Numbered from the stretch's first letter, positions 26,638 through 51,348 are shown. The stretch: 64,000 nt of DNA from Gammaproteobacteria bacterium (GCA_965213995.1 OZ243929.1:385807-449806), one strand, 5' to 3'. The notes: generated by a model not told the origin, from the sequence alone. Numbers and translations are program-made.

Positions 26638-27663
26638 TCAGTAGGAACGCGGCATGCCCAGCACATGCTGACCGATATAGCTCAGAATCATATTGGTCGA
26701 TACCGGCGCCACTTGGTAGAGGCGGGTTTCGCGGAACTTCCGCTCCACGTCGTATTCCTCGGCGAAGCCGAACCCCCCGAAAGTCTGAACGCAAGCCTCC
26801 GCCGCTTCCCAAGCAGCCTCCGAAGCCAGCAGCTTGGCCATATTGGCCTCCTTGCCGACGGACAAGCCCCGGTCGAACTTCTCCGCAGCGCTCGCAACCA
26901 TCAGTGCCGCCGCCTCCACCGAGGCGTAGGCCCGCGCGATCGGAAACTGCACCCCTTGGTTGCGCCCTATGGGCCGTCCGAAAACCTCCCGCTCGCCAGC
27001 GTACGCGGATGCCTTGTCGATGAACCAGCGGCCATCCCCGACGCACTCCCCGGCGATCAAGGTGCGCTCCGCATTCATGCCGTCCAGGATATAGCGGAAG
27101 CCCTGCCCTTCCTCGCCGATCAGGTTCTCCTTCGGAACGCGGACATCATCAAGGAAAACCTGCGTGGTGGCGTGGTTCATCATGGTGCGGATGGGCGCGA
27201 TGCTCAATCCGGGCGCATCGCGCATATCGACCATCAGCACCGACAGGCCTTCCGTGCGCCGCTCGACCTCTTCGCGCGGCGTGGTGCGGGCCAGAAGCAC
27301 CATCAAGTCCGAGTGCTCGGCGCGCGAGGTCCATATCTTCTGACCGTTCACCACATAGTGCCCGTTATCGCGGCGGGCGGTGGTCCGCAGGGCCAGGGTG
27401 TCGCTGCCGCTGCCGGGCTCGGTCACGCCGAAGGCCTGCAAGCGCAACTTGCCGGAAGCAATCCCGGGCAGCCACTTCCGCTTCTGCTCCGAACTGCCAT
27501 GACGCAGCAGCGTGCCCATCGCGTACATCTGCGCATGGCAGGCGCCGGCATTGCATCCGCAGCGGTGGATTTCCTCCAGAATGGCCGCGGCCGCCGCCAG
27601 CCCGAGGCCGCTGCCGCCGTACTCCTCGGGAATCAGCGCGCCAAGAAAGCCGCTGTCGGTCAT
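26638..27663 (-). CDS. Acyl-CoA dehydrogenase family protein, apparently N-terminally shortened
   Basis: 341 aa starting at ...GFLGALIPEEYGGSGLG, a motif that normally lies some 45-55 residues into ACADs (from memory). The rest is complete (FGVTEPGSGSD, ...IGEEGQGF..., C-terminal EGT-like region ...YQVAPVSTNMILSYIGQHVLGMPRSY). Confidence 0.8.
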   Translation of the reverse strand: MTDSGFLGALIPEEYGGSGLGLAAAAAILEEIHRCGCNAGACHAQMYAMGTLLRHGSSEQKRKWLPGIASGKLRLQAFGVTEPGSGSDTLALRTTARRDNGHYVVNGQKIWTSRAEHSDLMVLLARTTPREEVERRTEGLSVLMVDMRDAPGLSIAPIRTMMNHATTQVFLDDVRVPKENLIGEEGQGFRYILDGMNAERTLIAGECVGDGRWFIDKASAYAGEREVFGRPIGRNQGVQFPIARAYASVEAAALMVASAAEKFDRGLSVGKEANMAKLLASEAAWEAAEACVQTFGGFGFAEEYDVERKFRETRLYQVAPVSTNMILSYIGQHVLGMPRSY

Positions 27664-27695: not shown

Positions 27696-28793
27696 TCAGG
27701 GCCAGTCGCGGGAAACGCTGACAAATGAGCCGCGGGAGCGCGAAGCCATCATCCAGTAGTAGCCGGTCGCCGCCGGGTCGCCGTCGAGCGGATAGAACAG
27801 CACGTTGATGGGAATGCCGGGCGGCAGGTCGCGCACCGCGCGCTCAAAATGCCTCGAGCGGGCCCGCTGATCGACCCAACCGACCCGCGACGGCGGGCTG
27901 GCGCCTTGCGTGGGCAGTCCATCGGTCAGCAGGTAAACGTTGTCGGGCGATGGCTCCAGCGAGCGAACCGCCCGCACTGCCGCATGCATGCTGGTGCCGC
28001 CCTGCGGCGCGTGATCGCGCAGCGCCTCGACCGCTTCGCCGACCCGCGTTCCATCCGCAACGCTTAGCCATTGCCCGTCGGAGTCGTCCAGGATGCTGCG
28101 ATAGTCCTCGCCGTAGATATAGATCTGGAAGCGCTGCTGCGGCTCGAGCCGCGTGGTGATCCAATCGACCGAGTTGACCACTTGGCGCCACTTGGGGGCT
28201 CGCGGCTTCAACGCCTCGTTCATCAGCCTAAAGCGGATCACGTCGATATAGGTGCGTCCCAGCATGCTGGCGGAAGCGTCCACTAGGATCAGCACCCGCT
28301 CCCCGTCCATCCGCATGCCCGTAAGGTACTGGCGCGAACCGGCGCCTTCGAACTTTCTGATCTGCTGCCCTGCGCCCTCTTCCGACTCGGCAATCCGCGC
28401 CTCGAGCTCCTCCTGCATGTTGCGGAGCCGCTCCACGTCCGCGCGAAGCTTCTCGACCGACTCCTGGCTCCGCGTTCCTAGGCGCTCGTATTCCGACAGC
28501 TCCGCGAGCAAGGCGGCGAGCCGTTCCCTCAGCCTGCGCAGCTCCTCCGCCGCGCGGGCACGGCGGTCTTCCAGCTCATCGCGTTCCCCGCGAATCTGGA
28601 GCAGATCCTTGCGGCCTTCCAGCACCTCGTCCTCCAGCCGCGTGGTCTCGCTCAAAAGATCAATGCGCTCGGCATCGGCGCGCAAGCGCACCTGAGCGTT
28701 GATAATCACGAAAAACAACACCACGGCCCCGAAGCCGCAGGTAATGATGTCGAGAAACGACATGCTGAAAATATGAAACGGCCTACGCGCCAT
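27696..28793 (-). CDS. ExbD/TolR/MotB-type N-terminal TM helix + long coiled coil + vWA domain (intact MIDAS) protein
   Basis: MARRPFHIFSMSFLDIITCGFGAVVLFFVI (basic tail plus a TM helix carrying Asp, compare ExbD copies MVPLIDVVFILLLFFML and MIPLINVVFLLLAFFMI). About 130 aa of charged heptad-like sequence. vWA with VLILVDASASM, GGTSMHAA, YLLTDG. The start overlaps the upstream gene by 11 nt. Confidence 0.8.
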   Translation of the reverse strand: MARRPFHIFSMSFLDIITCGFGAVVLFFVIINAQVRLRADAERIDLLSETTRLEDEVLEGRKDLLQIRGERDELEDRRARAAEELRRLRERLAALLAELSEYERLGTRSQESVEKLRADVERLRNMQEELEARIAESEEGAGQQIRKFEGAGSRQYLTGMRMDGERVLILVDASASMLGRTYIDVIRFRLMNEALKPRAPKWRQVVNSVDWITTRLEPQQRFQIYIYGEDYRSILDDSDGQWLSVADGTRVGEAVEALRDHAPQGGTSMHAAVRAVRSLEPSPDNVYLLTDGLPTQGASPPSRVGWVDQRARSRHFERAVRDLPPGIPINVLFYPLDGDPAATGYYWMMASRSRGSFVSVSRDWP

Positions 28794-30204
28794 CGCGTTC
28801 CACCTCGCAGGTCACGAGAAATTCCAACGGACCGATGCCAACCCTGTCGCCCCCTCTCAGCGGCGCTGATTCCGCCACCGGAGCGCCGTTAAGGCGCGTG
28901 CCGTAACGGCTGTGATCGTGCAGCAAGGCTTGGCCGCTCTCCAGCAGCACGGTGCAGTGGTTGCGGGAAACGCCGCCTTCCGGCGACAGCGCGATGGCTA
29001 GGCCGTCCGGCTGCGGAGCGGAGCCAAGATGCAGCCCCTGCTCGTCGATGCGCCAGGCGCGCCCGCCAAGAACCAGATGGGTCGGCGTCAGCGCCCCTTC
29101 AGCCGCCTCCGCGCCCCCTGGCATAGCAGTGCCCAAAACCCCGGGATGATCGGGCCCGGCGCCGGCCGGCGCTTCCTGCGGCGGATCACTGGCCGCAAGG
29201 GAACGGAGCAGCATGTAGCGGTCCTTGCCGGCCGGCAGCGCCGGCACGCGGGCCAGCGCCCCAAGGGCCGAGGCCCCCGGCGGCAATGCCTCGACACCCT
29301 TCGGCAGCAAGCCCGCCAGCGCCTCGGCAACGCCCGGCATGGCGGCCAGCGCGGCCGAAAGCCGAACCAGCGCGGATCCGGGGCCGGCGCACCAGGAACG
29401 CAGCCGGTTGACAGGCGCCGCCAACTGCCGCTCCATTGCCGCCATGAATTCATCCCGGCGCAGCCTGGCCAAAGCCGGAATCGCCGCCCCGCTCACTTCA
29501 ACCTTCAGCTCGCCCTGCGCCACCAGGCTGCGCAGCCAGCCGTCTTGCTGTTCGGCAAGCTGCTGTTCCGTTTCCGGCAGGTCGAGAGGATCGAAGCGCG
29601 ATTCCGCCACAAAGCGCGCAGCCACATAAGCGACCGCCGCCGCTCGTAGATGCCGAAGGCCGGGACGGCCATTGAAGAGCAACTCCTCCGAGCAAATGCG
29701 TCCCTCATGCAGATCAAGCCGCGATGCCACAATGCGTTCCCCGTCGGCATCGATATGGACGCAGGAGCTGCCGGACGCGATTTCGCGCACGGCGGCCACG
29801 CCGCTCTCCACCAAGCCAGCCACTGGCAAGCCGACCTCCTCCGCGATGCCGAGAAGCAGCGCCAGACGATCATCGCCGGCGCCGGCCGGAACCACCAGGA
29901 TGACGCCTTCGATGCCCTCCGCCGATTTGCGGAAACGGGTCCACAATTCGGCTAGGTGGGCATGCGCCAAGTCCGCGAAGGTGCGCAGATTCCCGGCCGG
30001 CCTGGACAGCGGCGCTTCCGAAAGCAGGTCCCAGTAATTCCAGTAGCCCTGTCCGGGGTTGCGCCGCGCCGCGTCCGCCGCCGGCTTGCCGAACAGTACC
30101 CGGCGCTTTTCCGCGAAAGCCACACCCGGCTCATTGAACAGCACGCCGCCTTCGGCGGCGCCGATCAGCGCCGCGCCGTTGACCTCAAGGGCGACCCGCG
30201 CCAT
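28783..30204 (-). CDS. Soluble protein with degenerate Hsp70/actin-like N-terminal region and canonical C-terminal FHA domain
   Basis: C-terminus: GGVSRNHCTVLLESGQALLHDHSRYGTRLNGAPV...GDRVGIGPLEFLV (FHA signature). N-terminus: VILVVPAGAGDDRLALLLGIAEEVGLPVAGLVESGVAAV and VHIDADGERIVASRL resemble Hsp70 segments (VITVPAYFND.QR.AT.DAG.IAGL.V.RIINEPTAAA; V.DLGGGTFDVS), but the phosphate-1 DLGTTNS motif reads LEVNGAAL. Confidence 0.75.
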   Translation of the reverse strand: MARVALEVNGAALIGAAEGGVLFNEPGVAFAEKRRVLFGKPAADAARRNPGQGYWNYWDLLSEAPLSRPAGNLRTFADLAHAHLAELWTRFRKSAEGIEGVILVVPAGAGDDRLALLLGIAEEVGLPVAGLVESGVAAVREIASGSSCVHIDADGERIVASRLDLHEGRICSEELLFNGRPGLRHLRAAAVAYVAARFVAESRFDPLDLPETEQQLAEQQDGWLRSLVAQGELKVEVSGAAIPALARLRRDEFMAAMERQLAAPVNRLRSWCAGPGSALVRLSAALAAMPGVAEALAGLLPKGVEALPPGASALGALARVPALPAGKDRYMLLRSLAASDPPQEAPAGAGPDHPGVLGTAMPGGAEAAEGALTPTHLVLGGRAWRIDEQGLHLGSAPQPDGLAIALSPEGGVSRNHCTVLLESGQALLHDHSRYGTRLNGAPVAESAPLRGGDRVGIGPLEFLVTCEVERDGA

Positions 30205-30220
30205 CCGGCCCGCCGAAAAT

Positions 30221-31018
30221 TCAGCCGCCCTGCAAGCGCCTGATCAGCCGTTCGTCGCAGTAGTCTGCCGTTTCGAAGACCAGGCGCTCCTGCAGCAACT
30301 GAAGCTGATGAACCAGAAACATAATGAAGATGCTGACAAGCAAGGCGAAGAAGGTGGAATTGAAGGCCACGCCCAGGCTTTCAGTCACGCCGCTTATATC
30401 CCCTTCCACGGCCCGGTAGGCCAATGTCAGCGCCTCGCCGATTCCGCGCACCGTTCCGATAAAGCCAATCGACGGAATCGCCCAAGCGATATACCGGATC
30501 ATCGACAGCTCGGATTCCAGCCGCTCCGCCTCGGCATTGACCAGCGACTGGGTGGCGGACGACACGTCCTGCACATTTCCGGTGGCCCCGAACCGCTGCA
30601 ATGCGCTTAGCAGAACACGCGGAAGAAGCAGCCGCTGCTCTCCAGGCGGCAGCGCCCGCAACTGCCGCGCATGTTCGCGGGTATCTTCCGGCAGAATCCG
30701 CATTCCTTCGGCCAGAGGCAAGAGGTCACGCTGCAGCAGCGAACGCTCGCGCAGGGCCCCGCGGGCCTTGTAGCCCATGATCGCCAGCGCCCAGAGCGCC
30801 AGGATCAGGCAGGCCTCCTGCTCGAAGTCGCGCACGATCACGTAGAGGGATCGCTCCGGCACGTATTCCGAGTCCTGCTCCAGGCGGATGCGCTGCTCCT
30901 CCAGAACGGCGCTGGCCTGCGGGCGGATCCAGGCCACATACATCGCATGCACCAGAATCACCGCGAGAAACAGCGAGAACAACTGGAAAACGAACTCGAC
31001 CGGCAACTGCTTTCTCAT
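30221..31018 (-). CDS. MotA/TolQ/ExbB-family proton-channel-like protein (four predicted TM helices)
   Basis: Start at MRKQLPVEF (ATG 31018, overlapping the upstream stop as ATGA). C-terminal block IAWAIPSIGFIGTVRGIGEAL...SLGVAFNSTFFALLVSIFIMFL parallels ExbB/TolQ. The Arg/Gly-rich upstream extension of track ORF 30221..31429 is rejected. Confidence 0.8.
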   Translation of the reverse strand: MRKQLPVEFVFQLFSLFLAVILVHAMYVAWIRPQASAVLEEQRIRLEQDSEYVPERSLYVIVRDFEQEACLILALWALAIMGYKARGALRERSLLQRDLLPLAEGMRILPEDTREHARQLRALPPGEQRLLLPRVLLSALQRFGATGNVQDVSSATQSLVNAEAERLESELSMIRYIAWAIPSIGFIGTVRGIGEALTLAYRAVEGDISGVTESLGVAFNSTFFALLVSIFIMFLVHQLQLLQERLVFETADYCDERLIRRLQGG

Positions 31019-31557
31019 GGCTTTCCCTCCGGCGGCATCCGCCGAATCCGGGGCGGCCGGGGCATCAAAACCCGGCGCAGACGCCCGCTGCCTTCTTCCC
31101 AGACAGCGGCATGCGGAGCGGACCCAAACTCGAGCTCCGCCACCGCGCAGGTGGGAAACTTCCCGTGCAGGATCGCAAAAGCATCCGGCTCGCCCGATCC
31201 GGCCAGGTAGAGCGCCAGCTCCTGCAGCGCGGGATTGTGCCCCACCACCATCAGATCGCCCGCATCCCGCGGCAGCCCGCGAAGGCATCCCAGCACCGCT
31301 TGGGGGCTGAAGGTGTAAAGCGGGCGCAGAACGTCCACGCGCAAGTCCGCCGGCAAGGCCGGCAACACGCCGCACATTGTTTCCACCGCCCTGCGTCCCG
31401 CCGAGCACAGCACCCGCTTGGGCGCGCATCCGGCCGCCGCCAGCTTGCGACCCATCTCGGGCGCGTTGCGGCGCCCGCGAGGCGCCAGCGCGCGGGCGAA
31501 ATCATCCGCCGGCCAAGGCTCGGCCTTGGCGTGGCGAAGCAGCCATAAGCGAGTCAT
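31015..31557 (-). CDS. SixA-type histidine-phosphatase-superfamily protein
   Basis: MTRLWLLRHAKAE (RHA catalytic motif), SAGRRAVETM, and LMVVGHNPALQEL (second catalytic His in the SixA-type GHNP context). Start chosen at 31557; the longer track ORF is rejected. Confidence 0.8.
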   Translation of the reverse strand: MTRLWLLRHAKAEPWPADDFARALAPRGRRNAPEMGRKLAAAGCAPKRVLCSAGRRAVETMCGVLPALPADLRVDVLRPLYTFSPQAVLGCLRGLPRDAGDLMVVGHNPALQELALYLAGSGEPDAFAILHGKFPTCAVAELEFGSAPHAAVWEEGSGRLRRVLMPRPPRIRRMPPEGKP

Positions 31558-31633
31558 AGCGCTGATTCCGGCCACCCGGCATAAGGATCGAAGAATGCCC
31601 GCGCTGTCATGACTCCTGTATGCTACCCCGATC

Positions 31634-33832
31634 ATGGAGCCCATGCCACGACCGCTAAGTCCGGCGGAAAACGCCGGCGGCCGGCTGATCAACCGCGAGC
31701 TGTCGTGGCTGCAGTTCAACACCCGGGTTCTTGAGGAAGCCGGCAACGCCAACCATCCGCTGCTGGAGCGCGTGCGTTTCCTGTCGATTTCAGCGAGCAA
31801 CCTCGACGAGTTCTACATGGTGCGGGCGGCCGGCCTCATGGCCCAGGTGGCCGCAGGCGTCGCCCAGGCCAGCGCCGACGGCCTGCAGCCCAGCGAGCAA
31901 CTGCAGGCCATCCGCCAGCAGGTCAAGCGGCTGCTCAAGGCCCAATCGAAGCGCAGCGCAAAACTGCTGGACGAATGCCGCGAAGCGGGCGTGGCCGTGG
32001 CCGGCACCCGGGAACTGGGCGCAAAGGCCCGGGAATGGCTTTCCCGATGGTTCGAGGATCAGCTCTTTCCGGTGCTCACGCCTCAGGCCGTGGACCCCGC
32101 CCATCCGTTTCCGTTCATTCAAAGCGGCTGCCTCGTTTACGTGCTGCGGCTCAAGCGGCCGAGGGACAAGCGCGAATTCAACGGCCTTGTCCTGGTTCCT
32201 CCGCAGATCGAGCGCTTCGTTCGGGTGCCCGGCAAGTCGCTGCGCTTCGTGGCCGTGGAGGATATCGTGGCCCGGCATTTCGGACGCCTGTTCCCTGGCA
32301 TGGAGATACTAGGGCACGGCATATTCCGCATCAGCCGCGACAGCGATCTGGAGATCGACGAGGAAGCCGAGGATTTGGTCCGCACCTTTGAGACTGCCCT
32401 TTTGCGGCGGCGCAGGGGCAATGTGATCCGGGTGGAAGTGGCGGCCGGAATGCCTAAGAATTTCCGCAGATTCGTGCTCAGGGCGTTCGATGCCTCGCAT
32501 GCGCATGTGTTCGATATCGAAGGCATGCTCGGATTGGCGGATATCAAGCAGATCATCGCCGAGGAACGGGCGGACCTGCAGCACGAGCCGCTGAACGTGC
32601 GCTACCCCGAGCGGGTGCGGGAATACGGCGGCGATATTCTCGCCGCAATCCGCGCCAAGGATTTCGTGGTGCATCACCCCTACGAGAGCTTCGACGTGGT
32701 GGTGCAGTTCCTGCGCCGCGCCACCGCCGATCCGGCGGTGGTGGCGATTAAGCAAACCCTTTACCGCACATCGGAAGATTCGCCGATCGTGGAGGCGCTG
32801 ATCGCGGCCGCCGAGGCCGGCAAGCTGGTCACCGCCATGGTGGAGCTCAGGGCGCGTTTCGACGAAGCGGCGAATATTCGCTGGGCCCGCGAGATGGAGC
32901 GGGCCGGCGTGCAGGTGGTGTACGGTTTCGTGGAATTAAAAACCCACGCCAAGGTTTCGCTGGTGGTGCGGCGCGAGGGCGGCAAGCTCCGCACCTACAC
33001 GCATTTCGGAACCGGCAACTACCATCCGGTCAACGCCCGCGTTTACGTGGACCTCAGCTACTTCACCTGCGACGCGGCGCTGGGCCGCGACACGGCCCGC
33101 CTGTTCAACTACATGACCGGCTACGCCACCCCCGAAGATATGGAGAAGCTGGTTTACGCGCCCATGCAACTGAAGGATACGCTGGTGGATCTGATCGACG
33201 CGGAAACCGTGCATGCCCGGGCCGGCCGGCCGGCGGAAATCTGGGCCAAGCTCAATGCGCTGGTGGATCCGGAAATCATCGACTGCCTCTACCGGGCCAG
33301 CCAGGCAGGCGTATCCATCGAGCTCTATGTGCGCGGCATCTGCTGTCTGCGCCCGGGAATCATCGGGCTTTCGGAAAATATCCGTGTGCACAGCATGGTT
33401 GGAAGGTTCCTGGAGCACGCCCGCATCCTTTGCTTTGGCGCCGGACACCAGCTTCCCTCCACCGCAAGCAAGGTCTTTATTTCGTCCGCCGACTGGATGC
33501 CCAGGAACCTGCACAACCGCGTGGAAACCCTAGTGCCAATCGAGAACGAAACCGTTAAAAGGCAGCTGGTGGAACAAGTCCTCATGGCCAACCGCTTTGA
33601 CATCATGCAAAGTTGGGAAATGCAGCCGGACGGCTCCTACCAGCGCCTGCCGCAACCCCCCCGGGCATTCAACGCGCATACCTGGTTCATGACCCATCCC
33701 AGCTTGTCGGGGCGCGGAAGCGCGCTGCGTGAATCGCGCCCCGCCATGCCGGGCGAGCTCTTTCCCAAACACGGGGGCGCCGCGGCTGAAGAAAACGCGC
33801 CGTCCCCCGCCCTAGTGAAAGCCGCCGTCTGA
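31634..33832 (+). CDS. ppk: Polyphosphate kinase 1
   Basis: 732 aa. INRELSWLQFNTRVLEEA N-terminus; two PLD-like HKD-type regions (..THAKVSLVVRRE.., ..FLEHARILCFG..). Confidence 0.95.
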   Translation: MEPMPRPLSPAENAGGRLINRELSWLQFNTRVLEEAGNANHPLLERVRFLSISASNLDEFYMVRAAGLMAQVAAGVAQASADGLQPSEQLQAIRQQVKRLLKAQSKRSAKLLDECREAGVAVAGTRELGAKAREWLSRWFEDQLFPVLTPQAVDPAHPFPFIQSGCLVYVLRLKRPRDKREFNGLVLVPPQIERFVRVPGKSLRFVAVEDIVARHFGRLFPGMEILGHGIFRISRDSDLEIDEEAEDLVRTFETALLRRRRGNVIRVEVAAGMPKNFRRFVLRAFDASHAHVFDIEGMLGLADIKQIIAEERADLQHEPLNVRYPERVREYGGDILAAIRAKDFVVHHPYESFDVVVQFLRRATADPAVVAIKQTLYRTSEDSPIVEALIAAAEAGKLVTAMVELRARFDEAANIRWAREMERAGVQVVYGFVELKTHAKVSLVVRREGGKLRTYTHFGTGNYHPVNARVYVDLSYFTCDAALGRDTARLFNYMTGYATPEDMEKLVYAPMQLKDTLVDLIDAETVHARAGRPAEIWAKLNALVDPEIIDCLYRASQAGVSIELYVRGICCLRPGIIGLSENIRVHSMVGRFLEHARILCFGAGHQLPSTASKVFISSADWMPRNLHNRVETLVPIENETVKRQLVEQVLMANRFDIMQSWEMQPDGSYQRLPQPPRAFNAHTWFMTHPSLSGRGSALRESRPAMPGELFPKHGGAAAEENAPSPALVKAAV

Positions 33833-33838
33833 ACGCTC

Positions 33839-35335
33839 GTGCCAGGCGTGCTGCGAACCACCCCTGCTACCCCGGGCGAGGCGCCGGTGGCGGTCATCGA
33901 TGTGGGCTCCAACTCGGTGCGCTTGGTGGTGTACGAAAACAGCGGACGCGCGCCGCTGCCGATCTTTAACGAAAAGGCCTTGTGCGGCCTGGGCCGGGAA
34001 CTGGACCGCAGCGGCAGGATGGAGGAAAAATCGATCGGCCTGGCGATGGACAGCCTGCGCCGCTTCGCGCAATTATGCCCCCGAATGGGAGTGCGGGATA
34101 TCCATGCCGTGGCCACCGCGGCCGTTCGCGAAGCGAGCAACGGGCCGGAATTTCTGGATAAAGTGCGCGAGCAGTGCGGCCTTGATATCAAGCTGCTGTC
34201 CGGCGCCCGCGAAGCGGAAGTGTCCGCTGCCGGCGTCGTGAGCGCAATTCCCAATGCAAGCGGGCTGGCCGCCGATCTGGGCGGGGCGAGCCTGGAACTG
34301 ATTCTTCTCGATAGCGGCCGGGTCGCCGAGAGCATTTCCCTGCCGTTCGGCACAGTGCGCCGAAACAGCGCCGAACCGCTTGCCCAGAGCCGCAAGGCGG
34401 TTGCGTACCGGCTTGCGGCCCTGGATTGGCTGCGGCAGGCCCGGAGCCAGCGCCTATACCTGGTTGGGGGCGCCTGGCGGGCGCTGGCACAGATGCATAT
34501 GGATGAAACGGGCTACCCGCTGCATGTGATTCACCACTACGCGCTCGACGCGCGCGCTGCCGGCGATTTTTGCGCCGCGCTGGCCGGCTGGCCACGCGAG
34601 CGTCTGGAAGCCGCCAAGGGATTGCGCGCGGACAGGCTGGAATCGCTGCCGTTTGCGGCAGCCGTTATCGACTGCCTGCTACAGCGGACTTGCGCCGGCC
34701 AGATCGTGTTTTCCGCCAACGGATTGCGTGAAGGCTGCCTGTACAAAGCCCTGCCCCCGCTGGAGCGGGAAATGGATCCGCTTTTGTCGATATGCGAAAC
34801 CACAGCGCGACGCATGGGACGCGGCGGCTCCGGCGGCGATTTGCTGGCCGAATGGATCGCTCCGGCGCTCGACGGCGTGGCCCCGCGCAAGCTTCGTCTG
34901 GCTGCATGCCACTTGTCCGATATCGGCTGGTCCGAACACCCCGATTACCGCGCCGAGCAGGTATTTCTCCGCATACTGCGCATGCCGCTCACAGGCGCCG
35001 ATCACCGCGAACGGGTGATGCTGGGGCTGGCCGTCGCCTCGCGACACGCCTCTTTGGGTTCGAGCCTCAAGAGGCTGGGCCTGCGCCAGCTCATCAACAG
35101 GGAGGAAGAGCGCCAATCGACCGTGACCGGGCTGGCCATGCGCCTTGCCTACACGATCTCGGGCGGGGCCTTGAGCGTGCTCAGACAGTTTCGTTTGCAG
35201 CGGACATCGAAGACGCTGGTGCTGACCGGACCTGAGGATGGCCAAATACTGGTTGGAAACACCGTGCAGCGCCGCCTGCGCACGCTGGCGGAAAAACTGG
35301 GATTGGATCATGCCATTCGACTGTCGGGCCGCTAG
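33839..35335 (+). CDS. ppx: Exopolyphosphatase (Ppx/GppA family)
   Basis: VAVIDVGSNSVRLVVYE..., GGASLEL, and ~500 aa in total. Immediately downstream of ppk (6-nt gap, GTG start). Confidence 0.9.
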   Translation: MPGVLRTTPATPGEAPVAVIDVGSNSVRLVVYENSGRAPLPIFNEKALCGLGRELDRSGRMEEKSIGLAMDSLRRFAQLCPRMGVRDIHAVATAAVREASNGPEFLDKVREQCGLDIKLLSGAREAEVSAAGVVSAIPNASGLAADLGGASLELILLDSGRVAESISLPFGTVRRNSAEPLAQSRKAVAYRLAALDWLRQARSQRLYLVGGAWRALAQMHMDETGYPLHVIHHYALDARAAGDFCAALAGWPRERLEAAKGLRADRLESLPFAAAVIDCLLQRTCAGQIVFSANGLREGCLYKALPPLEREMDPLLSICETTARRMGRGGSGGDLLAEWIAPALDGVAPRKLRLAACHLSDIGWSEHPDYRAEQVFLRILRMPLTGADHRERVMLGLAVASRHASLGSSLKRLGLRQLINREEERQSTVTGLAMRLAYTISGGALSVLRQFRLQRTSKTLVLTGPEDGQILVGNTVQRRLRTLAEKLGLDHAIRLSGR

Positions 35336-35386: not shown

Positions 35387-35800
35387 TCAGATATCAGTCG
35401 GCCAGACGACGGGGTTGTCTGCCGAAAGCGGCTCGGACGGCGTGAATTCCTCCAGTACCTCCTCGTTCCCTAGCGCTTCCTCAATGCGCGCCAGATCCTC
35501 TTCGATGGAGGCGACCTCGGCGGACAACTCCGGTTGCGTATCTGGCGCATCTTCGCCTGAAGCTTCGGAACCAAGGGCTGCGTCGCTGAAAGACGGGAGG
35601 GCATTGTTGCCCGCAGGATCAATGCTCCCGCTCTCCGGAGAGGCTTCGATTCCAAGCAGCGCGCCATTCCCGGGCGACTCCGCCTCCGCGGCGGAGCGAT
35701 CCTGCGACTGGAACCCGAGCCAGCGGCCCGCCTGGCCGGCGGCCCAAGTGAGGCTGATGCCGAGACCGATAACAGCGATGACGCCGGATAATTTCCTCAT
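35387..35800 (-). CDS. Small acidic, probably secreted/anchored low-complexity protein
   Basis: 137 aa. N-terminal hydrophobic segment (VIAVIGLGISLTWAAG), then a Glu/Asp/Ser-rich sequence. Its ATG overlaps the upstream stop (ATGA at 35797-35800). Confidence 0.5.
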   Translation of the reverse strand: MRKLSGVIAVIGLGISLTWAAGQAGRWLGFQSQDRSAAEAESPGNGALLGIEASPESGSIDPAGNNALPSFSDAALGSEASGEDAPDTQPELSAEVASIEEDLARIEEALGNEEVLEEFTPSEPLSADNPVVWPTDI

Positions 35801-38214
35801 TCCTGTGCCTGCAACTCCGCATGGCGGGCCAAACGAAATCCTACATCGACCCGTTCCTCGGCACCGAAATCCCGGAACGCCCAGCGCAATTCGCGCAGAG
35901 TGCCATGCAGCCAGCTTGAGCCCCGTATCACCTTGAAGCGTCCTTCCTGCGGCCCCTGCGGATCGATCTCCACGCCGGGGTAGAGCGTATCCGCGCTGTA
36001 GTAATCACCCATCCACTCGGCCGCGTTGCCGCTAAGATCGTGGAATCCGAGCGGATTGGCCGGAAAGCTGCCCACCGGCGCGGTAAAAGCGAAATTGTCG
36101 TTGTAGCTCGCGAGCACGTTGCTTACCAGAGCGCTGGCCGACTGATCGGCGTAGTTGCCGGCGCGCGATGGCGGCGGCATCCGCTCGCCCCAAGGGTACC
36201 GCGAGCTGCCGCCGCCCTGGTAGCGCGCCGCCCAAACCCATTCGGCCTCGCTGGGCAGCCGATATCCTGCGCCCGGCTCGGCCACCGGAACCAGCCGGCC
36301 GGCTCGACTCTGGTACTGAAGCGGCAAACCCTCCTGCGAGCTTAGCCAGTTGCAGAAAGCGGCCGCTGCCTGCCAATCCATATTCACCGCAGGGCTGGAC
36401 TCGTTGGCCAGCGCGCGAAAACGCTCCGCGCCCGAGGTATGAGTGGGCGCAAAGGCCTTGAATTCGCGGTTCGTCACTTCCTTCACGCCCAAGTAATAGC
36501 GCTTGGTGATCCGCACCTTGCGGAGCACCTCATTGCTTCGCCAGCCCTGCGAGCCGCGCTGCGCGCCCATCTCGAATTCGCCCGGAAACAGCATCACCAT
36601 TCTGGCCCCCTGCGAGGTTTCGATTTCCTTGGGTTGCTGCGCCAGCCTATGCTCCTGCGGCGTGAGCAGCTCGACAGCCACTTCCTGCGGATAGGCGGGT
36701 TGAGGCACCACCTTGCGCTGCTGGGCCACGTAGCCTTCCCGCCGAAATTCGAGTTCGTGCTCGGTGGCCGGCAGTTGCAGCTCGATGGGAGCATGTCCCG
36801 CCAGCTCGCCGTTCACCAGCACCGCCGCCCCCTCAGGCCGACTCAGCGCCCGAATGGCTCCCAAGCGCGGCTCAAGGCGGATATTGAGCGTTTGCTCAGC
36901 GCCCCGCGCCAGCGTAACGAGGCGTTCCTGCGACTCATAGCCTGCGCGCGCCGCCACCACCCGGTGGGCGCGGTCCGGAACCACTTCCACAGTGGCAGGC
37001 GTGCCGCCGCGAAAGTCGCCGTTCACGGTGATGCTGGCGCCAGGAGGATCGGTGAGCACCCGAAGAACGCCCGCTGCGGGCTGGAGGCGCACGGTGGGCA
37101 GCACTTGCGGCGAACCGGCCACTACAGCCAACTCTTCGCGGTGTGTTGCGTACCCCGGCCGGGAAAAAGCCAGCACACGCTGGCCGGACAGCAATTCCAC
37201 AGTGGCGGGCGTGGTTCCCAGCAGCCTATTCCCCGAGCGAAGCTCGGCGCCGGCGGGCTCGCTGCTCACAGTGATCGCCGCCCAGTCCGGTTCCAGTTGC
37301 GCCGCGAAGATCTCCCGTTCGCCGCCGCCACCCACGGTTAGCGGAATATCCAGGTTCTTGTAGCGGGGCGCGCTGATGGACAGCGCCCAGGTTCCGGGCT
37401 CCAGCGCGATTTCCTCGCCGGACGCGAAAACGCCTTCCACTCCCCCCACCCGGATTTCCGCGCCGTCCACGCTATCCACGACCACAAGCCCGGGCAGAAG
37501 CCGCAAATCAAAGCGAAACGCCTCGTCTCCGCCGCCAAGCACTTCGATTCGCTCGTCGAGCGGATGATGCCGCGCGAGCTCTGCCCGCACCCGGTATTCG
37601 CCTTTCCAAAGCAGATAGCGCGGCCCTATGTGCGGGGCAACCAGCGCCCCGTCAACTTCAACGCTGGCTTCCGGCGGCGACACCTCGATCAGAACGCCTT
37701 CGGCGGTAAACACGAAGATGGCGCTCGCCGCAAGGAGCGCGAGGGCCAGCCCCGCCGCCATGCGCAGCCACAGACCGCCCTTGCGCGATCGCGCAGGCCG
37801 GACGCTGGCGGCGGGCCTTTGAACGCGGATCGATTCGCCCGATTCGATATCGCCGGCCAGCTCCGGCGGACGGGTATCCCAAGCCCGCGCCAAGTACCGC
37901 GCGCTCAGCCGCATCGCCTGCGGAGAAACCGAGTCAACCGTCACTTCCGCCCCGGCGATGGACAAACGGTCGCCCTCGCCGAGCCAGCGGGCGCCGCTCA
38001 CGGCCTGTCCGTTCAATTGCAGGCCGGAAACGCCCGCATAGCACTGCACCAGCGCCCGGCCGTCGAGAACATTGATGCTGGCCGCCGGAGGCGCGGAGGG
38101 CGGGCCGGGCAAGCGGATATGCGAACCCGCGCCGCTGCCGAGAAGAACGGGCAAATCACCCGCCCGAAGAACGCGCTCGCCTTCCGGCAGCCCGAGAATC
38201 ACTTCAGCCGTCAT
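35797..38214 (-). CDS. Degenerate FHA-like N-domain + TM + five PEGA repeats + C-terminal FGE/SUMF1-type (formylglycine-generating-enzyme-like) domain
   Basis: N-terminus ..LLGSGAGSHIRLPG...LQLNGQAV...GDRLSIAGAEVTV. TM GLWLRMAAGLALALLAASAIFVF. PEGA-type repeats (SSEPAGAELRSGNRLLGTTP..., TDPPGASITVNGDFRGGTP..., SRPEGAAVLVNGELAGHAP...). FGE block (GEFEMGAQRG...YYLGVKEVTNREFKAF...YRLPSEAEWVWAAR...HDLSGNAAEWMGDYY...VIRGSSW...GFRLAR). Confidence 0.85.
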   Translation of the reverse strand: MTAEVILGLPEGERVLRAGDLPVLLGSGAGSHIRLPGPPSAPPAASINVLDGRALVQCYAGVSGLQLNGQAVSGARWLGEGDRLSIAGAEVTVDSVSPQAMRLSARYLARAWDTRPPELAGDIESGESIRVQRPAASVRPARSRKGGLWLRMAAGLALALLAASAIFVFTAEGVLIEVSPPEASVEVDGALVAPHIGPRYLLWKGEYRVRAELARHHPLDERIEVLGGGDEAFRFDLRLLPGLVVVDSVDGAEIRVGGVEGVFASGEEIALEPGTWALSISAPRYKNLDIPLTVGGGGEREIFAAQLEPDWAAITVSSEPAGAELRSGNRLLGTTPATVELLSGQRVLAFSRPGYATHREELAVVAGSPQVLPTVRLQPAAGVLRVLTDPPGASITVNGDFRGGTPATVEVVPDRAHRVVAARAGYESQERLVTLARGAEQTLNIRLEPRLGAIRALSRPEGAAVLVNGELAGHAPIELQLPATEHELEFRREGYVAQQRKVVPQPAYPQEVAVELLTPQEHRLAQQPKEIETSQGARMVMLFPGEFEMGAQRGSQGWRSNEVLRKVRITKRYYLGVKEVTNREFKAFAPTHTSGAERFRALANESSPAVNMDWQAAAAFCNWLSSQEGLPLQYQSRAGRLVPVAEPGAGYRLPSEAEWVWAARYQGGGSSRYPWGERMPPPSRAGNYADQSASALVSNVLASYNDNFAFTAPVGSFPANPLGFHDLSGNAAEWMGDYYSADTLYPGVEIDPQGPQEGRFKVIRGSSWLHGTLRELRWAFRDFGAEERVDVGFRLARHAELQAQE

Positions 38215-38255
38215 GCTGCGGCCTCAACCGGCCATCGTGCAGAAGAAGCCGGTCA

Positions 38256-40595
38256 TCAAACCGGTTCGGTGCAGATCAGCACCAAAGGCTCGGGAAGCCC
38301 CTCGGGCGCAACGACAAACTCGCGGCGCACATCGCGATAGCCATTGCGTGTGCCCACGGCCGTATAGGCGCCGGGCCGGAGCTGAAGGACGCGGTTGTCA
38401 AAGCTCCCCAGGCGACCGACGTGATAAATGGTGACCTCGGTGAGGCCATCGGAGCGCAGCCGCACCGGAGCCGGCGTGGCGGCCACCCGCAGGGTCTGGT
38501 CCAGCCGCTCAATCTGACCGCTCAGCCGCGGCCCCGGAGCCGCAATGCCGGCCGCCTCGTCGAGCAGGCTTCGGCCCTGCTGCCAGGCATCGTCGCGATT
38601 CAGCCTGCGGCTGTTGGCAATAGTGCTTTCCAGATCGTCATCGAGGCCCGCCCGCCGCTGCGCCTCAGCCAGCCCCCGTTGCGCGGCGACGATATTTGAA
38701 TCGATCTCCAGCATTGCGCGGTAGCTGTCCGCAGCCTTGCGCCAATCTTCCGAAAACTTGCCGGCCATCGCCGCCGCCTGCAATTGGGCTAGGCGCTGGC
38801 CGCGTTCCTCCAGCTCCAGCGCCGCCAGCGCCTCGGCTGGCGCCGGATCGCCGGGGCGCTGTTTCAGCGCCGCCTCGAAAGCGGTGCGGGCAACCGCCAC
38901 GTCCCCCTCCGCCAGGGCCGCATGGCCGCGCGACATGCGCGAGACAAAAAGACGTCGTTCGATAGCGGCATTCACCTCAGCCAGCGCTGAGCGCGCCGAA
39001 TTGCGCCCAGGATCAATATCCAGCACGGCGCGCCAGGCGGCGCGCTGCTCCTCAAGGCCGCCTTCCCGCCTAGCGGCCCGGGCTGCGGCCACCGCTTGCA
39101 TGATTTCGGGAAGCCTGGCGGCCCGGCCGTACGCCGATTGGACCTCGGGATCGGTTTCCCCCAGCAGTATGCGGGCCTTCTCAAGCTCCGCCATTGCGCC
39201 AGCCTGGTCGCCCGACTCGATCGCCTCCAACGCTGCCTCCAGGGCGTTGCGGCCGATCTCCGGCGCCTGCCCGCGCAGTTCGCGCAGCATGCCACCTGCC
39301 TTGCCGTATGCGACTCGCGCCTGCGGATACTCGCGCCGCCGATAGGCATCGTCGCCCTTTTGCTCCTCCTCGAGCGCCCGCTCCCAGAGTCCGCCCGACC
39401 ACAGCGACGGCTGCAGCGAGGCCAAGTAGTTGCGATCCTGCAGCATTCCGCCCATCGCCTCGTCGGCCGCGTCCCGTTGCATCCGCATCAGTTGCATGTC
39501 CTGGCGAGGCGCCTCCTCCGGCTCCCGAACAATGCGCTCGACAACCGGCCGATTCTCCGCGCGCTCCTCAACCATTCGAGGCAAAACCAGGAACAATACC
39601 GCTGCGGCAACCAGCAGCAGGCCGCCTAGCGCATACGCCAGCCAGACCGGAACCCCCGCGCGCCTCTGTAGCGCGGGCGACGGCGAACGGTCAGCGGCGC
39701 GCGCGCGCGCCACAATCGCAGATGCTTGGGCCGACCCTTCCTCCGCTGCGGATTCCGTCAGGATTTCCTCAAAACCAACCCTTGCCGCCTGCGCCGTTAC
39801 AGGCCTGCGCGCCTTGTCATGCGACAGCATCGCCGCCACGAGTTCCACCAAAGCCTCCGGAAGCGGCGGCAGCCCCTCGGGCGCCGCAGGTCCAGCGGGC
39901 GGCCCGGCGCGAATGCGCTCCTCGCTAATATCCGGCGCATGGGGCGGAAAACCGCACAGCAACTCGTAGGCAACGCAGCCCAGCGCATAGATATCGTCGC
40001 TGGCTTGGGCAGGTTCGCCCGCGCACTGCTGCGGGCTCATGTAGGCCAGCGAACCGCCCTCTCGCCGGATACGCCCGTCCGGCTCGGCATCTGCCAGCCG
40101 GGCGGCGCCGAAATCGGTGAGCCGGGCAGCGCCGGACTCGTCCAGCAGGATATTCCGCGGTTTGAGATCGCCATGGATCACTCCCTTGCGATGCGCGTAC
40201 GCCAGCGCGTCGCAAACCGGCAGAAGCCGCCGCAGGCTTTCGCTCCATGGCTTGCACGGCGATTCGCCGATAGAGCCCCCCGAAAAGGCGGGCATGGTCA
40301 GGAAGTGGCAGCCATCTTCCGAGTGAAATTCAATCGGGCGGGCGATGCCCGGATGAACCAGGGACTGCGCCAGGTCAAATTCGCGGCGGAAGCGATCGAG
40401 CAAAGCCGGATGCCGGGCATGGTCATCGGCGAGCACCTTCACCGCCAACTGCGCGCCTGCGGCTGCATCCTCGGCAAGCCAAACCTCGCTCGACCCGCCG
40501 GCGCCCAGCTTGCGAACCAGACGGTAGCGCGATGCCAGCAGTTCTCCTTGTTTTCGGTTCGTCATGGCGGGAGGAGCCGCAAGAAGGGAGGGCAT
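38256..40595 (-). CDS. Hanks-type Ser/Thr protein kinase + TM + TPR-like periplasmic region + C-terminal PEGA-like module
   Basis: LGAGGSSEVW (Gly loop), LAVKVL (VAIK), HGDLKPRNILL (catalytic loop, HGD i.e. non-RD), DFGAA, YMSPQQ. TM VWLAYALGGLLLVAAAVLFLVL. The tail LRPGAYTAVGTRNGYRDVRREFVV is PEGA-like. Confidence 0.9.
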   Translation of the reverse strand: MPSLLAAPPAMTNRKQGELLASRYRLVRKLGAGGSSEVWLAEDAAAGAQLAVKVLADDHARHPALLDRFRREFDLAQSLVHPGIARPIEFHSEDGCHFLTMPAFSGGSIGESPCKPWSESLRRLLPVCDALAYAHRKGVIHGDLKPRNILLDESGAARLTDFGAARLADAEPDGRIRREGGSLAYMSPQQCAGEPAQASDDIYALGCVAYELLCGFPPHAPDISEERIRAGPPAGPAAPEGLPPLPEALVELVAAMLSHDKARRPVTAQAARVGFEEILTESAAEEGSAQASAIVARARAADRSPSPALQRRAGVPVWLAYALGGLLLVAAAVLFLVLPRMVEERAENRPVVERIVREPEEAPRQDMQLMRMQRDAADEAMGGMLQDRNYLASLQPSLWSGGLWERALEEEQKGDDAYRRREYPQARVAYGKAGGMLRELRGQAPEIGRNALEAALEAIESGDQAGAMAELEKARILLGETDPEVQSAYGRAARLPEIMQAVAAARAARREGGLEEQRAAWRAVLDIDPGRNSARSALAEVNAAIERRLFVSRMSRGHAALAEGDVAVARTAFEAALKQRPGDPAPAEALAALELEERGQRLAQLQAAAMAGKFSEDWRKAADSYRAMLEIDSNIVAAQRGLAEAQRRAGLDDDLESTIANSRRLNRDDAWQQGRSLLDEAAGIAAPGPRLSGQIERLDQTLRVAATPAPVRLRSDGLTEVTIYHVGRLGSFDNRVLQLRPGAYTAVGTRNGYRDVRREFVVAPEGLPEPLVLICTEPV

Positions 40596-40640
40596 CCTGC
40601 GCCTGCTAAAGGCTCAATGAGGGCTTGATGTCCCCGTTCG

Positions 40641-41846
40641 CTATTGCTCCCCAAGGCCCGGCATGTCCAAGGCGCCGGTCTCGCGGCTGTAGATTTCCTG
40701 CAAAAGACGGCGCCATTCACGAAACCGCTCCTCGGCGGACCCGGTCAACCGCCGGGTCTGGCCTTCCAGCTCCACCACCACCGGCTCGGCTTCGGACTCG
40801 AACGACTCGCCCGCCTCGCGCAGCGCCTCGGCATGCAACCGGGCTTCCTCCCGGCGGCTCAGGCCGCTCTGGATCCCCATAAAGCCGCCCTGAACGGCAG
40901 TGGTCGTTACACCCATGTTGTCGCCGCCACTGGCCTCGTAGGCAATGGCGCCCAGTATGCTGAGCACCCCCAGCAACATGCGCGTATTGGCCGACCGGCG
41001 CATTTCCTCGTAGCTCATGCGGCCTTCACGGGCCATGCGCCGCCAGTCTGTATAGGTTTGATCCAGGCCGTGGTAAAGGTTGGCGTAGTGCTCGTTGACG
41101 GCATCGATCAGCGCGTATTCCCGCTCCCGAACCTTGCGCATCCGGGCGACCATGGGTTCGCTGGACGCTGGCAGGCGCTTGACTTGGTAGCGCCCGTCCC
41201 CATCCTGCTCCAAGTAACCCTCGAAAGCCTGCGGGACTAGGCTGAGGCCGTAGCGCAAATCGCTCACATCGCGAATTCGCTGCAGCTCGCGATCGCTGAG
41301 TTGAGCCCGGGCCTTGAGAAGATCATTCGCGATCTCGTTATAGATTTTCTGATACGGATCCTGGCCAGGTCCGGTATTGCGGACATAAGCTTGTTCGGCC
41401 ACCTCCATCTCGTACTTTTTCTCGAACCACTCGCGGCCGGAAGCGTCCCAGGCGCCCACGCGCAGTTTCGCGCTATAGCCGTCGGAATGGTCGATCCGCG
41501 CGGCGATATGAATATCCGTAACGGGACTGAAATCGGGCAGCACGCTGACGGCGCCCCAGAATCCGGTGGATTCCAGCGTATTCTTGAGGTGATAGGGCAT
41601 GTAGCGCGCTTCCGCGCGGCGGATCTCCGGAAAGATGAACCGGTTGTTGAGTTCCTGCTCGCCGACATCATCGGGCACTCCCGCGTCAAAAACCAGAATG
41701 CCCACGCTCAGCAGCTGCTCCTGCGCGATATCGGTTTCCGTCCGTGCCAGAGGCACCTCGATATACTGCACCTCGCGCGACGATGTGCATGCCGCCAGCA
41801 TGGCCGCGCAGGCCAGCATGCCGAAAAATGCGTTGGTTTTTTTCAC
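40641..41846 (-). CDS. Lipoprotein of unknown function (401 aa)
   Basis: GTG start at 41846 overlaps the upstream stop (GTGA) and is preceded by GGGAG. Lipobox AMLAAC. No family recognised. A hydrophobic/Gly-rich C-terminal segment is present (LLGVLSILGAIAYEASGG). Confidence 0.65.
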   Translation of the reverse strand: MKKTNAFFGMLACAAMLAACTSSREVQYIEVPLARTETDIAQEQLLSVGILVFDAGVPDDVGEQELNNRFIFPEIRRAEARYMPYHLKNTLESTGFWGAVSVLPDFSPVTDIHIAARIDHSDGYSAKLRVGAWDASGREWFEKKYEMEVAEQAYVRNTGPGQDPYQKIYNEIANDLLKARAQLSDRELQRIRDVSDLRYGLSLVPQAFEGYLEQDGDGRYQVKRLPASSEPMVARMRKVREREYALIDAVNEHYANLYHGLDQTYTDWRRMAREGRMSYEEMRRSANTRMLLGVLSILGAIAYEASGGDNMGVTTTAVQGGFMGIQSGLSRREEARLHAEALREAGESFESEAEPVVVELEGQTRRLTGSAEERFREWRRLLQEIYSRETGALDMPGLGEQ

Positions 41847-50204: not shown

Positions 50205-50270
50205 CCCGCCTAGTGTGCCGAAGGACGTGAAGGCCACGCAGGATTTTTCCCGCCTGCGCGCGCTCGCGAT

Positions 50271-50960: not shown

Positions 50961-51348
50961 TCGACTGGTCGGGCGGCACAGGCGGGCTATAAGCATGGTG
51001 CCGCTAATCGATGTCGTCTTCATCCTTCTTCTTTTCTTCATGCTGTCCACCAGCCTGATCCAGGCGCGCGAGCTGTCGGTCGATTTCCCCGCACCGGAAT
51101 CCGGGCCGTTGGATCCGCAAATCAGCATCATCCGCCTAGAGTCCGAAGACGGCCTTTTTTCGTTAGAGGGGGCGAGCCACCTCTCATCGGACATGGAAGC
51201 GATGCGCCGCCTGGTTGCGCAAAATCCGCAAGCCCACTATGCCATCGACACGGCGCCCGGCGTGAGCACCCAAGCGCTTGTCACGCTTCTGGACCGTCTG
51301 GCTCTGGCCGGCGCGGAAAGCCTTTCGCTGATGGAGGGAAAGCCGTGA
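50950..51348 (+). CDS. exbD: ExbD/TolR biopolymer transport protein, copy 1
   Basis: MRLDRLVGRHRRAISMVPLIDVVFILLLFFML, ~130 aa. Start chosen at 50950 (11-nt overlap with exbB). Confidence 0.85.
   Translation: MRLDRLVGRHRRAISMVPLIDVVFILLLFFMLSTSLIQARELSVDFPAPESGPLDPQISIIRLESEDGLFSLEGASHLSSDMEAMRRLVAQNPQAHYAIDTAPGVSTQALVTLLDRLALAGAESLSLMEGKP

Follow-up and report, generated by a model that had tools for sequence, protein, structure and literature searches.

A MotA/TolQ-like protein and an Asp-helix vWA protein in a conserved, kinase-linked gene cluster: candidate parts of an ion-driven envelope motor

In a 64,000-nucleotide (nt) stretch of a Gammaproteobacteria bacterium genome (GCA_965213995.1 OZ243929.1:385807-449806), hereafter the window, four co-directional open reading frames (ORFs) occupy positions 27696–31557 and encode, in reading order, a SixA-like protein, a MotA-like membrane protein, an FHA protein and a transmembrane (TM) protein with a vWA head. 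These genes had been read, from the sequence alone, as one operon for a candidate undescribed ion-driven, phospho-regulated envelope system (the original prediction). In the analysis reported here, the MotA-like, FHA and vWA genes are the core of a larger unit, a cluster of 8–9 genes whose upstream half is intact at 35387–42874, and the SixA-like gene is a local add-on. Together, the MotA-like and vWA proteins probably make up an ion-driven membrane motor of the 5:2 type that is coupled to a kinase.

Genes of the cluster and their domains

The features of the locus are collected in Table 1; all coordinates are positions in the window, and all cluster genes read on the minus strand. The three junctions originally described are exact on the sequence. 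The SixA-like and MotA-like genes meet at ccATGAgaa (31018–31015), where the stop TGA overlaps the start ATG, with GGAGGG lying 6–7 nt upstream of the MotA-like start. The MotA-like stop TGA (30223–30221) and the FHA start ATG (30204) leave a 16-nt gap (30205–30220), and the vWA start ATG (28793) and the FHA stop TAG (28785–28783) delimit an 11-nt overlap (28783–28793).

Table 1. Features of the cluster and of the insertion that splits it; the last column gives the loci that carry the gene beside the Asp-TM-vWA gene, out of those informative for it
Feature	Position	Strand	Basis or remark	Loci
Gly/Ser-rich lipoprotein candidate, conserved C-terminal segment ...IREALWEEYRKHMG	41843–42874	-	sequence	
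Lipoprotein candidate at cluster head, lipobox LAAC in MLACAAMLAAC	40641–41819	-	sequence	49/52
Hanks-type Ser/Thr kinase, 779 aa	38256–40595	-	Pfam Pkinase, 122 bits	54/55
FHA-like/PEGA/FGE-fold membrane protein, 805 aa	35797–38214	-	Pfam, hhalign	58/59
Small exported acidic protein, 137 aa	35387–35800	-	position shared with relatives	
ppx	33839–35335	+	insertion splitting the cluster	
ppk1	31634–33832	+	insertion splitting the cluster	
SixA-like gene of the histidine phosphatase superfamily, lineage-specific neighbour	31015–31557	-	weak family scores	
MotA-like A-type subunit, MotA/ExbB/TolQ family, 265 aa, four hydrophobic segments	30221–31018	-	Pfam	71/72
Thr189 codon	30454–30452	-	aligns with TolQ Thr145	
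Thr222 codon	30355–30353	-	aligns with TolQ Thr178	
FHA/Hsp70-fold protein, cytoplasmic adaptor candidate, 473 aa	28783–30204	-	AlphaFold2, Foldseek, Pfam FHA	75/76
Hsp70 nucleotide-binding domain/actin-fold domain, residues 1–338	29191–30204	-	Foldseek	
Disordered linker, residues 340–370 of the FHA protein		-	AlphaFold2 model	
FHA domain, residues ~372–470	28795–29091	-	Pfam and model	
Asp-TM-vWA protein, candidate B-type subunit, 365 aa: basic N-tail, TM helix, stalk, vWA head	27696–28793	-	conservation, AlphaFold2, Foldseek	
Asp15 codon	28751–28749	-	invariant TM-helix Asp	
DxSxS of the metal-ion-dependent adhesion site (MIDAS)	28280–28266	-	with T267 and D291	
Second vWA paralog				71/73

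The MotA-like protein had been assigned to the MotA/ExbB family with four hydrophobic helices, and both statements hold. Its hydrophobic segments lie at residues 4–33, 65–86, 173–191 and 214–244, and the Pfam profile MotA_ExbB (PF01618) matches residues 133–247 with 54 bits (cut-off 22.9, E 1.8e-14); the same PF01618 assignment is precomputed on every homolog of the protein among those listed. In an ungapped HMMER alignment against TolQ (8odt), T189 falls on T145 and T222 on T178. These two TolQ residues are pore threonines of the last two TM helices, equivalent to T148 and T181 of ExbB, and T189 and T222 are each at least 95% conserved in 75 orthologs of the MotA-like protein. The loop that joins TM2 and TM3 (residues 89–172) contains a conserved RF..T146. 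This protein is also the product of the most conserved gene of the cluster, with typically 57–73% identity (49–52% in four loci), compared with 39–52% for the vWA protein in loci where the MotA-like protein shows 57–73%.

All the elements that had been ascribed to the fourth gene product are present, namely a TM helix with an Asp, a helical stalk and a vWA head of the MIDAS type. The protein has a single TM segment (residues ~7–37), and its AlphaFold2 (AF2) model shows helices at 14–104 and 110–136 followed by an alpha/beta domain at 160–365, the helical stalk measuring ~100–120 residues. The head is modelled with predicted local distance difference test (pLDDT) values of mostly 72–94 and ~87 on average, and Foldseek returned vWA domains as top matches of the alpha/beta domain (4fx5, ITIH1, CMG2 and CLCA1, prob 1.00); the Pfam profile VWA_2 stays below its threshold, at 22.5 against 27 bits. 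In the TM helix, F13, D15, C19, G22 and L26 show no substitution among 32 sequences reaching down to 28% identity, and the motif is kept across 83 vWA orthologs, D15 being invariant in the 24-, 32- and 83-sequence sets alike. In the head, S174, D291 and the C-terminal W364-P365 are invariant in alignments reaching 28% identity, at least 90% of the sequences retain D172, S176 and G266 in the MIDAS region, and T267 is conserved. In 79 orthologs the sequences flanking the TM helix have a net charge of +2.6 N-terminally and −0.7 C-terminally, a bias that favours an N-in orientation and would thus place the stalk and the head in the periplasm. The family is large: of the 90% clusters that were scored, 2939 match at E ≤ 1e-5, and an exhaustive 50%-identity library has 423 clusters at E ≤ 1e-30.

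Two further features of the vWA protein and its relatives were seen. A short motif, RQYLTG (residues 154–159; 28332–28315), precedes the first vWA strand in a low-confidence linker of the model; its G159 is invariant and its Y156 is present in at least 90% of the sequences down to 28% identity. It may serve as a hinge, as a ligand or as a site of modification. One relative, the 542-aa protein P0302, carries the same vWA head fused to a BlaR1/M56-like multi-pass membrane domain with HExxH, which replaces the Asp helix and stalk; the fusion could be another means of anchoring the head in the membrane, or an artefact of assembly.

The third gene had been described as encoding a soluble FHA protein. 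The FHA domain is confirmed at the C-terminus (Pfam FHA, residues 404–458, 34.1 bits against a cut-off of 20.7), and an N-terminal domain resembling the nucleotide-binding domain (NBD) of Hsp70 had been overlooked. The AF2 model has a mean pLDDT of 86, and Foldseek places DnaK/Hsp70 NBDs at the top for the N-terminal domain, with E values from about 1e-13 to 1.6e-15 and TM-scores of 0.6–0.7 on the target. Within the FHA domain, a 34-sequence alignment shows no variation at S413, H416, S432, T436 and N439, and at least 90% of its sequences have R414.

The upstream half of the cluster begins with the two lipoprotein candidates. The C-terminal segment of the Gly/Ser-rich one finds matches upstream of the other lipoprotein gene in many loci (e.g., L004), and the product of 40641–41819 matches no known domain or family in Pfam or NCBIfam. 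The Hanks-type kinase consists of a kinase domain (24–270), a TM segment (313–344) and a periplasmic TPR-like region, with TPR matches in its C-terminal part, and retains DFG and the catalytic Lys and Asp. In the 805-aa protein, an FHA-like domain (~1–100, cytoplasmic) and a TM segment (148–179) are followed by periplasmic PEGA repeats and an FGE-sulfatase fold (537–797), the Pfam scores being 124 bits for PEGA and 140.8 bits for FGE-sulfatase. Its N-terminal ~100 residues are not recognised as an FHA domain by Pfam, and they align by hhalign with the FHA domain of the third gene product at a probability of 97% (E 6.6e-11). The best NCBIfam match of the FGE-fold domain is GldK/PorK, a ring lipoprotein of the type IX secretion system (T9SS), at E 4.4e-28 and below the cut-off. 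True FGEs carry two catalytic cysteines; the segment RGSSWLHGTLRELRW lacks both, which suggests a binding rather than an enzymatic role. The small acidic protein has an N-terminal hydrophobic TM or signal segment (4–22) and a conserved C-terminal motif, EEFxPSxPLxAD..V.WP.DI. The start of its gene shares 4 nt with the stop of the gene upstream, and relatives carry a counterpart at the matching position (small105 in L001).

Conservation of the cluster in related genomes

A single scan of species-representative genomes yielded at least 594 confirmed relatives. The neighbourhood analysis covered the best 80 loci of these at least 594 together with two metagenomic loci (82 in all), and the linkage counts use only loci with enough flanking sequence. 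The linkage of MotA-like, FHA and Asp-TM-vWA genes that had been seen in one genome extends to other genomes, the MotA-like gene being linked in 71 of 72 loci and the FHA gene, situated between the MotA-like and vWA genes, in 75 of 76. The order is near-invariant: Gly/Ser-rich lipoprotein, lipoprotein, Hanks kinase, FHA-like/PEGA/FGE-fold protein and small acidic protein, and then the MotA-like protein, the FHA protein, the vWA protein and a second vWA paralog. This paralog (330 aa in L001) has a helix SLSFLDAITCGFGAV with an Asp, a stalk of similar length and a DTSGS MIDAS of its own. The hosts include Woeseiaceae, Steroidobacteraceae, Chromatiales, Pseudomonadales, Desulfobacterales and a metagenome-assembled genome (MAG) of Myxococcales, and further Vicinamibacteria (Acidobacteriota), Spirochaetales, Kiritimatiellae and Puniceicoccaceae (Verrucomicrobiota-type).

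No ExbD/TolR homolog was found in any of the 82 loci, with queries that do recover the window's own ExbD genes; as a positive control, the TolR query found the window's ExbD at E 1.8e-6. An additional gene follows the second vWA paralog in 21 loci (e.g., L011:2424-3170, L021:4742-5584 and L040:11129-11884). In Woeseia-type loci its product combines a signal peptide with a Gly-zipper and a coiled coil, its C-terminus being OmpA-like and peptidoglycan-binding, and it could serve as a trans-acting anchor for a motor that has no peptidoglycan-binding domain of its own. This OmpA-like accessory was the sole extra gene to emerge from an all-against-all clustering of ORFs, which was noisy owing to spurious ORFs at high GC.

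A candidate 5:2 motor and competing explanations

The pairing of a TolQ/MotA-like protein with a membrane-tethered vWA protein is not without precedent. In a study published in 2025 (Mol Biol Evol, PMC12204202), TM-tethered vWA proteins were reported to co-occur tightly with tolQ homologs without tolR/exbD neighbours, mostly as heterologous pairs in Proteobacteria and Verrucomicrobia, and to carry a "transpore helix" (TPH) with a conserved Asp; an AlphaFold3 model, i.e., a computational prediction, placed the Asp pair inside the Thr ring of a TolQ-like pentamer. The cluster shares with these TPH-vWA transducers the TM-tethered vWA protein, the TolQ/MotA-like neighbour, the missing tolR/exbD, the Asp helix and the Thr ring, and the heterologous vWA pairs match the relatives of the cluster, though not the window, L003 or L007; the window differs in its single vWA paralog and its ppk1-ppx-sixA insertion. 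Judged from these shared features, the core would belong to a motor family already predicted in the literature, and the description of the system as undescribed does not stand for this pairing, for which a 5:2 model had been published (PMC12204202). The same study is silent on the FHA/Hsp70-fold gene, the kinase, the FGE-fold/PEGA protein and the lipoproteins. Literature searches for a combination of kinase, FHA, Hsp70-fold and FGE-fold proteins with a motor returned nothing beyond it, and a survey of conflict systems (PMC7159879) makes no mention of TolQ/ExbB; the wider context thus appears to be new.

The proposal that the MotA-like and Asp-TM-vWA proteins are probably two parts of a kinase-coupled 5:2 motor is carried by their domain identities, by the conservation of the pore residues, by the gene linkage and by the absence of any other B-type subunit from the loci, and independently by the published AlphaFold3 model of a TolQ-like pentamer whose pore holds the Asp helices of vWA proteins (PMC12204202). 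In such a motor, a pentamer of the MotA-like protein would surround a dimer of the single-pass vWA protein, with the ion-binding Asp15 of the N-terminal helix facing the ring of Thr189 and Thr222, and ions would flow through the assembly. The axle would continue into the periplasm as the ~100–120-residue helical stalk and end in the metal-dependent vWA head, which would grip an envelope partner; candidates are the FGE-fold/PEGA protein, the two lipoproteins and the small acidic protein. The output may be a force exerted on the outer membrane, adhesion or surveillance. With no peptidoglycan-binding domain in the protein, anchoring or activation would depend on what the vWA heads bind. Most lineages would have a heterodimeric axle; in the window, where the second vWA paralog is missing, it would presumably be a homodimer. 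The Hanks kinase is envisaged to phosphorylate a component and the FHA domain of the Hsp70-fold protein to read the mark, a coupling through the FHA/Hsp70-fold adaptor to which the strict gene linkage points. The phospho-regulation proposed originally has its basis not in SixA but in the Hanks kinase together with a second FHA-like domain, both encoded upstream (35797–40595).

With ExbB-ExbD, TolQ-TolR and MotA-MotB, the candidate pair has in common a MotA_ExbB-type A subunit with both pore threonines, a predicted N-in single-pass partner with an Asp, and linked genes. However, the partner lacks the ExbD/TolR periplasmic domain, the plug and the OmpA-like peptidoglycan-binding domain, and carries a long helical stalk with a vWA head in their place; the A subunit resembles MotA in its four hydrophobic segments, yet scores best against TolQ; and the FHA/Hsp70-fold protein and the kinase are linked here. 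The GldLM/PorLM motor with GldK/PorK-GldN, of T9SS and gliding, resembles the cluster in its 5:2 type, its stalked axle that spans the periplasm and its FGE-fold envelope protein, whereas the cluster proteins show no sequence relation to GldL/GldM, no T9SS genes are present, the GldK match is below the cut-off and, unlike GldK, the FGE-fold protein here is anchored in the inner membrane with a cytoplasmic FHA-like domain. In the Agl-Glt gliding machinery of Myxococcus (AglRQS, TonB-like GltG/J and CglB), a motor driven by the proton motive force (PMF) is likewise linked, across the periplasm, with a vWA adhesin (PMC11761067), but there the Asp subunits are AglS and AglQ and CglB is a separate outer-membrane lipoprotein, whereas here the Asp helix and the vWA domain are in one polypeptide.

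Several observations weigh against the proposed motor. The pLDDT of the AF2 monomer is 34–71 across the TM helix and stalk of the vWA protein. Neither Pfam nor NCBIfam gives an ExbD, MotB or OmpA profile match for the full protein, five N-terminal 47-mers have no ExbD/TolR/MotB match in Pfam at E ≤ 10, and an N-terminal profile run against the PDB sequences returned no ExbD/TolR/MotB chain and only a chance match to NDUFB4. An hhalign comparison with four ExbD/TolR N-termini (two of them from E. coli) did set Asp on Asp, with P 0.0076 and a probability of 5%; that the TM helix belongs to the ExbD/TolR/MotB family is thus not demonstrable by sequence. Identity with the TPH-vWA family, whose seed is from Idiomarina loihiensis, is likewise one of shared features only. 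On the regulatory side, the arginine of the Gly-Arg motif in the FHA domain is replaced (GS in LHLGS), and the cluster contains no conserved Ser/Thr phosphatase and no phospho-acceptor site that could be identified. Among the invariant columns of the Hsp70-like domain, inspected by eye in 34 sequences, there is no phosphate-binding motif (DxG, GGGT), so that this domain may be a scaffold only. Finally, one locus from a Kiritimatiellae MAG (L070, 4950–7051) carries vWA-A and vWA-B as a pair, and upstream of it a cation-efflux gene and an EEP-family gene stand in place of MotA-like and FHA genes.

The alternative that survives best is an envelope-sensing Ser/Thr-kinase module in which the MotA-like and vWA proteins form a gated ion channel or sensor rather than a rotary motor. 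Its attraction is the parallel with the threonine phosphorylation pathway of T6SS (the type VI secretion system), TagQ-TagR-PpkA-Fha1-PppA, which senses membrane damage and gates an envelope machine on it. The pathway shares with the cluster a lipoprotein, an FGE-fold protein (TagR is a COG1262 FGE-fold periplasmic protein), a receptor kinase of the Hanks type and an FHA reader, as in TagQ/TagR/PpkA/Fha1. PpkA has a periplasmic vWA domain. However, the cluster has no T6SS genes, PP2C phosphatase or TagST, its vWA domain sits on the motor subunit and a MotA-like protein is present. Moreover, conservation is strict for the Thr/Asp triad of the pore, which is typical of 5:2 motors that convert energy, the MotA-like gene is the most constrained of all, and neither T6SS nor other obvious output genes occur in the cluster, so that a sensor of this kind is considered unlikely.

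A still smaller chance is given to the idea that the Asp-TM-vWA protein is a TolA/TonB-like peripheral transducer outside the MotA/ExbB pentamer, with the true axle encoded elsewhere, for example by ExbD at 50950–51773. Transducers of this type with vWA heads adjoin tolQR-like genes in bacteria of the Planctomycetes–Verrucomicrobia–Chlamydiae (PVC) group (PMC12204202), spare ExbD genes exist in the window, and the TM helix has no significant sequence similarity to ExbD. Against this, the helix has an invariant Asp rather than an SHLS/His motif, the 82 loci are without ExbD/TolR, the window's ExbD genes belong to an ExbB-ExbD-ExbD operon of their own, and a dimeric axle would agree well with two vWA paralogs whose stalks match in length.

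The precedents of GldLM with its GldK ring and of the lipoprotein/TagR/kinase/FHA set of the T6SS make the architecture of the proposed kinase-coupled motor plausible. A more far-reaching proposal can be made tentatively, one that falls somewhat short of being probable: the 8–9 genes may encode a previously unrecognised trans-envelope machine in which a PMF-driven 5:2 rotary motor, its (hetero)dimeric axle a coiled-coil stalk with MIDAS vWA heads, works with the FGE-fold/PEGA protein and the lipoproteins in the periplasm and is switched by the receptor kinase by way of FHA domains and the actin/Hsp70-fold adaptor, making it the first phospho-gated member of the MotAB/ExbBD/TolQR class. The known functions of 5:2 motors are flagellar rotation, TonB-dependent uptake, Tol-Pal, gliding/T9SS and Zorya, and we know of no motor of the MotAB/ExbBD/TolQR class that is regulated by phosphorylation. 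If true, such a machine would be conserved across several phyla, mostly in uncultured marine and sediment bacteria. A widespread branch with an adhesion-type head on the axle was flagged only in silico in 2025, and the conserved cluster context now offers testable hypotheses on the motor's partners and its phospho-regulation.

The rearranged form of the cluster and its neighbours

The closest relatives are Candidatus Foliamicus (Gammaproteobacteria). In this lineage (the window, L003 and L007), ppx, ppk1 and sixA lie between the gene of the small acidic protein and motA, and the second vWA paralog is missing from the locus; in the window, a tblastn search with the paralog found only the vWA gene at 27696–28793 itself. 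The ppk1-ppx arrangement is repeated in L003 and L007 and missing from 57 of 59 other informative loci. The window's cluster is therefore a derived, rearranged, single-paralog form.

The first gene had been called a SixA-type phosphatase. It is SixA-like, with an RHA(K) catalytic-type motif at residues 8–10 and a His_Phos_1 score of 22.0 bits against a cut-off of 21.7, but at 45.6 bits it does not reach the 74.5-bit cut-off of TIGR00249 (sixA), and scores as weak as these do not establish it as a SixA equivalog. That the four genes at 27696–31557 make up one functional operon, in which SixA dephosphorylates a motor component, is very improbable. The ATGA overlap with its upstream GGAGGG speaks for it, the cluster has no other phosphatase, and some enzymes of the histidine phosphatase superfamily are able to use phospho-proteins as substrates. 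However, sixA occurs in only 2 of 70 informative loci, each time with the ppk1-ppx insertion, and it is divergent from ppk1 across 76 nt. The junction itself also varies: in L003, on a Ca. Foliamicus chromosome, an antitoxin-type HicB-like ORF (L003:7215-7742) separates sixA from motA, which marks the junction as an insertion hotspot in the Foliamicus lineage, and in L007 a 10-nt gap replaces the overlap. Given this rarity and variability, the ATGA overlap is no proof of membership; it is a local accident of insertion. SixA was thus rejected on synteny as a bystander, together with ppk1 and ppx, a caution that an operon-like junction in a single genome need not mean functional coupling.

The sixA and ppk1 genes diverge from a common 76-nt spacer (31557–31634), and sixA, ppk1 and ppx travel together in all three loci of the Foliamicus lineage. 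A functional link between sixA and ppk1, separate from the motor, is possible: PPK1 uses a phospho-His intermediate, and its connection with SixA-like phosphatases is taken only as a lead.

A Zorya-like anti-phage defence system on a MotA/MotB-type motor is extremely unlikely: Zorya does show that 5:2 motors can act as defence sensors, and conflict systems repeatedly contain vWA, kinase and FGE-fold domains (PMC7159879), but the PADLOC models gave only a marginal ZorA match (E 0.029) and otherwise coiled-coil noise on the stalk (~30–150) to SMC/JetC/LmuB-type helical proteins, the cluster has no ZorB/C/D-like or effector (nuclease, etc.) genes, a plasmid tblastn search found no plasmid copy, and the stable order with shared flanks (Pterin_4a, 28 loci) across many lineages is unlike that of defence islands. 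ZorAB is likewise a non-flagellar MotAB-type motor with unusual extensions, which there are a long cytoplasmic ZorA tail and a peptidoglycan-binding ZorB, and ZorC/D have no equivalents here.

Beyond the cluster, an acyl-CoA dehydrogenase ORF (26638–27663, minus strand) lies 32 nt past the vWA stop, where the relatives carry the second vWA paralog. The Pfam match to its N-domain sets in only at position 40 of the profile, so that the ORF may be truncated N-terminally or have another true start. The Pterin_4a (pterin-4a-carbinolamine dehydratase) gene stands just downstream of the cluster in the 28 loci (L001:10179-10523 and 27 others), mostly of the Woeseiaceae/Chromatiales type; inherited synteny is the probable reason, not a role in the system. 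The ExbB gene and the two ExbD genes to which the MotA-like and vWA proteins had originally been compared were found as an ExbB-ExbD-ExbD operon at 50214–51773 on the plus strand. In the second ExbD an Asn replaces the essential Asp of the TM helix (SMIPLINVVF compared with SMVPLIDVVF in the first), which suggests an asymmetric ExbD heterodimer with a single ion-binding site.

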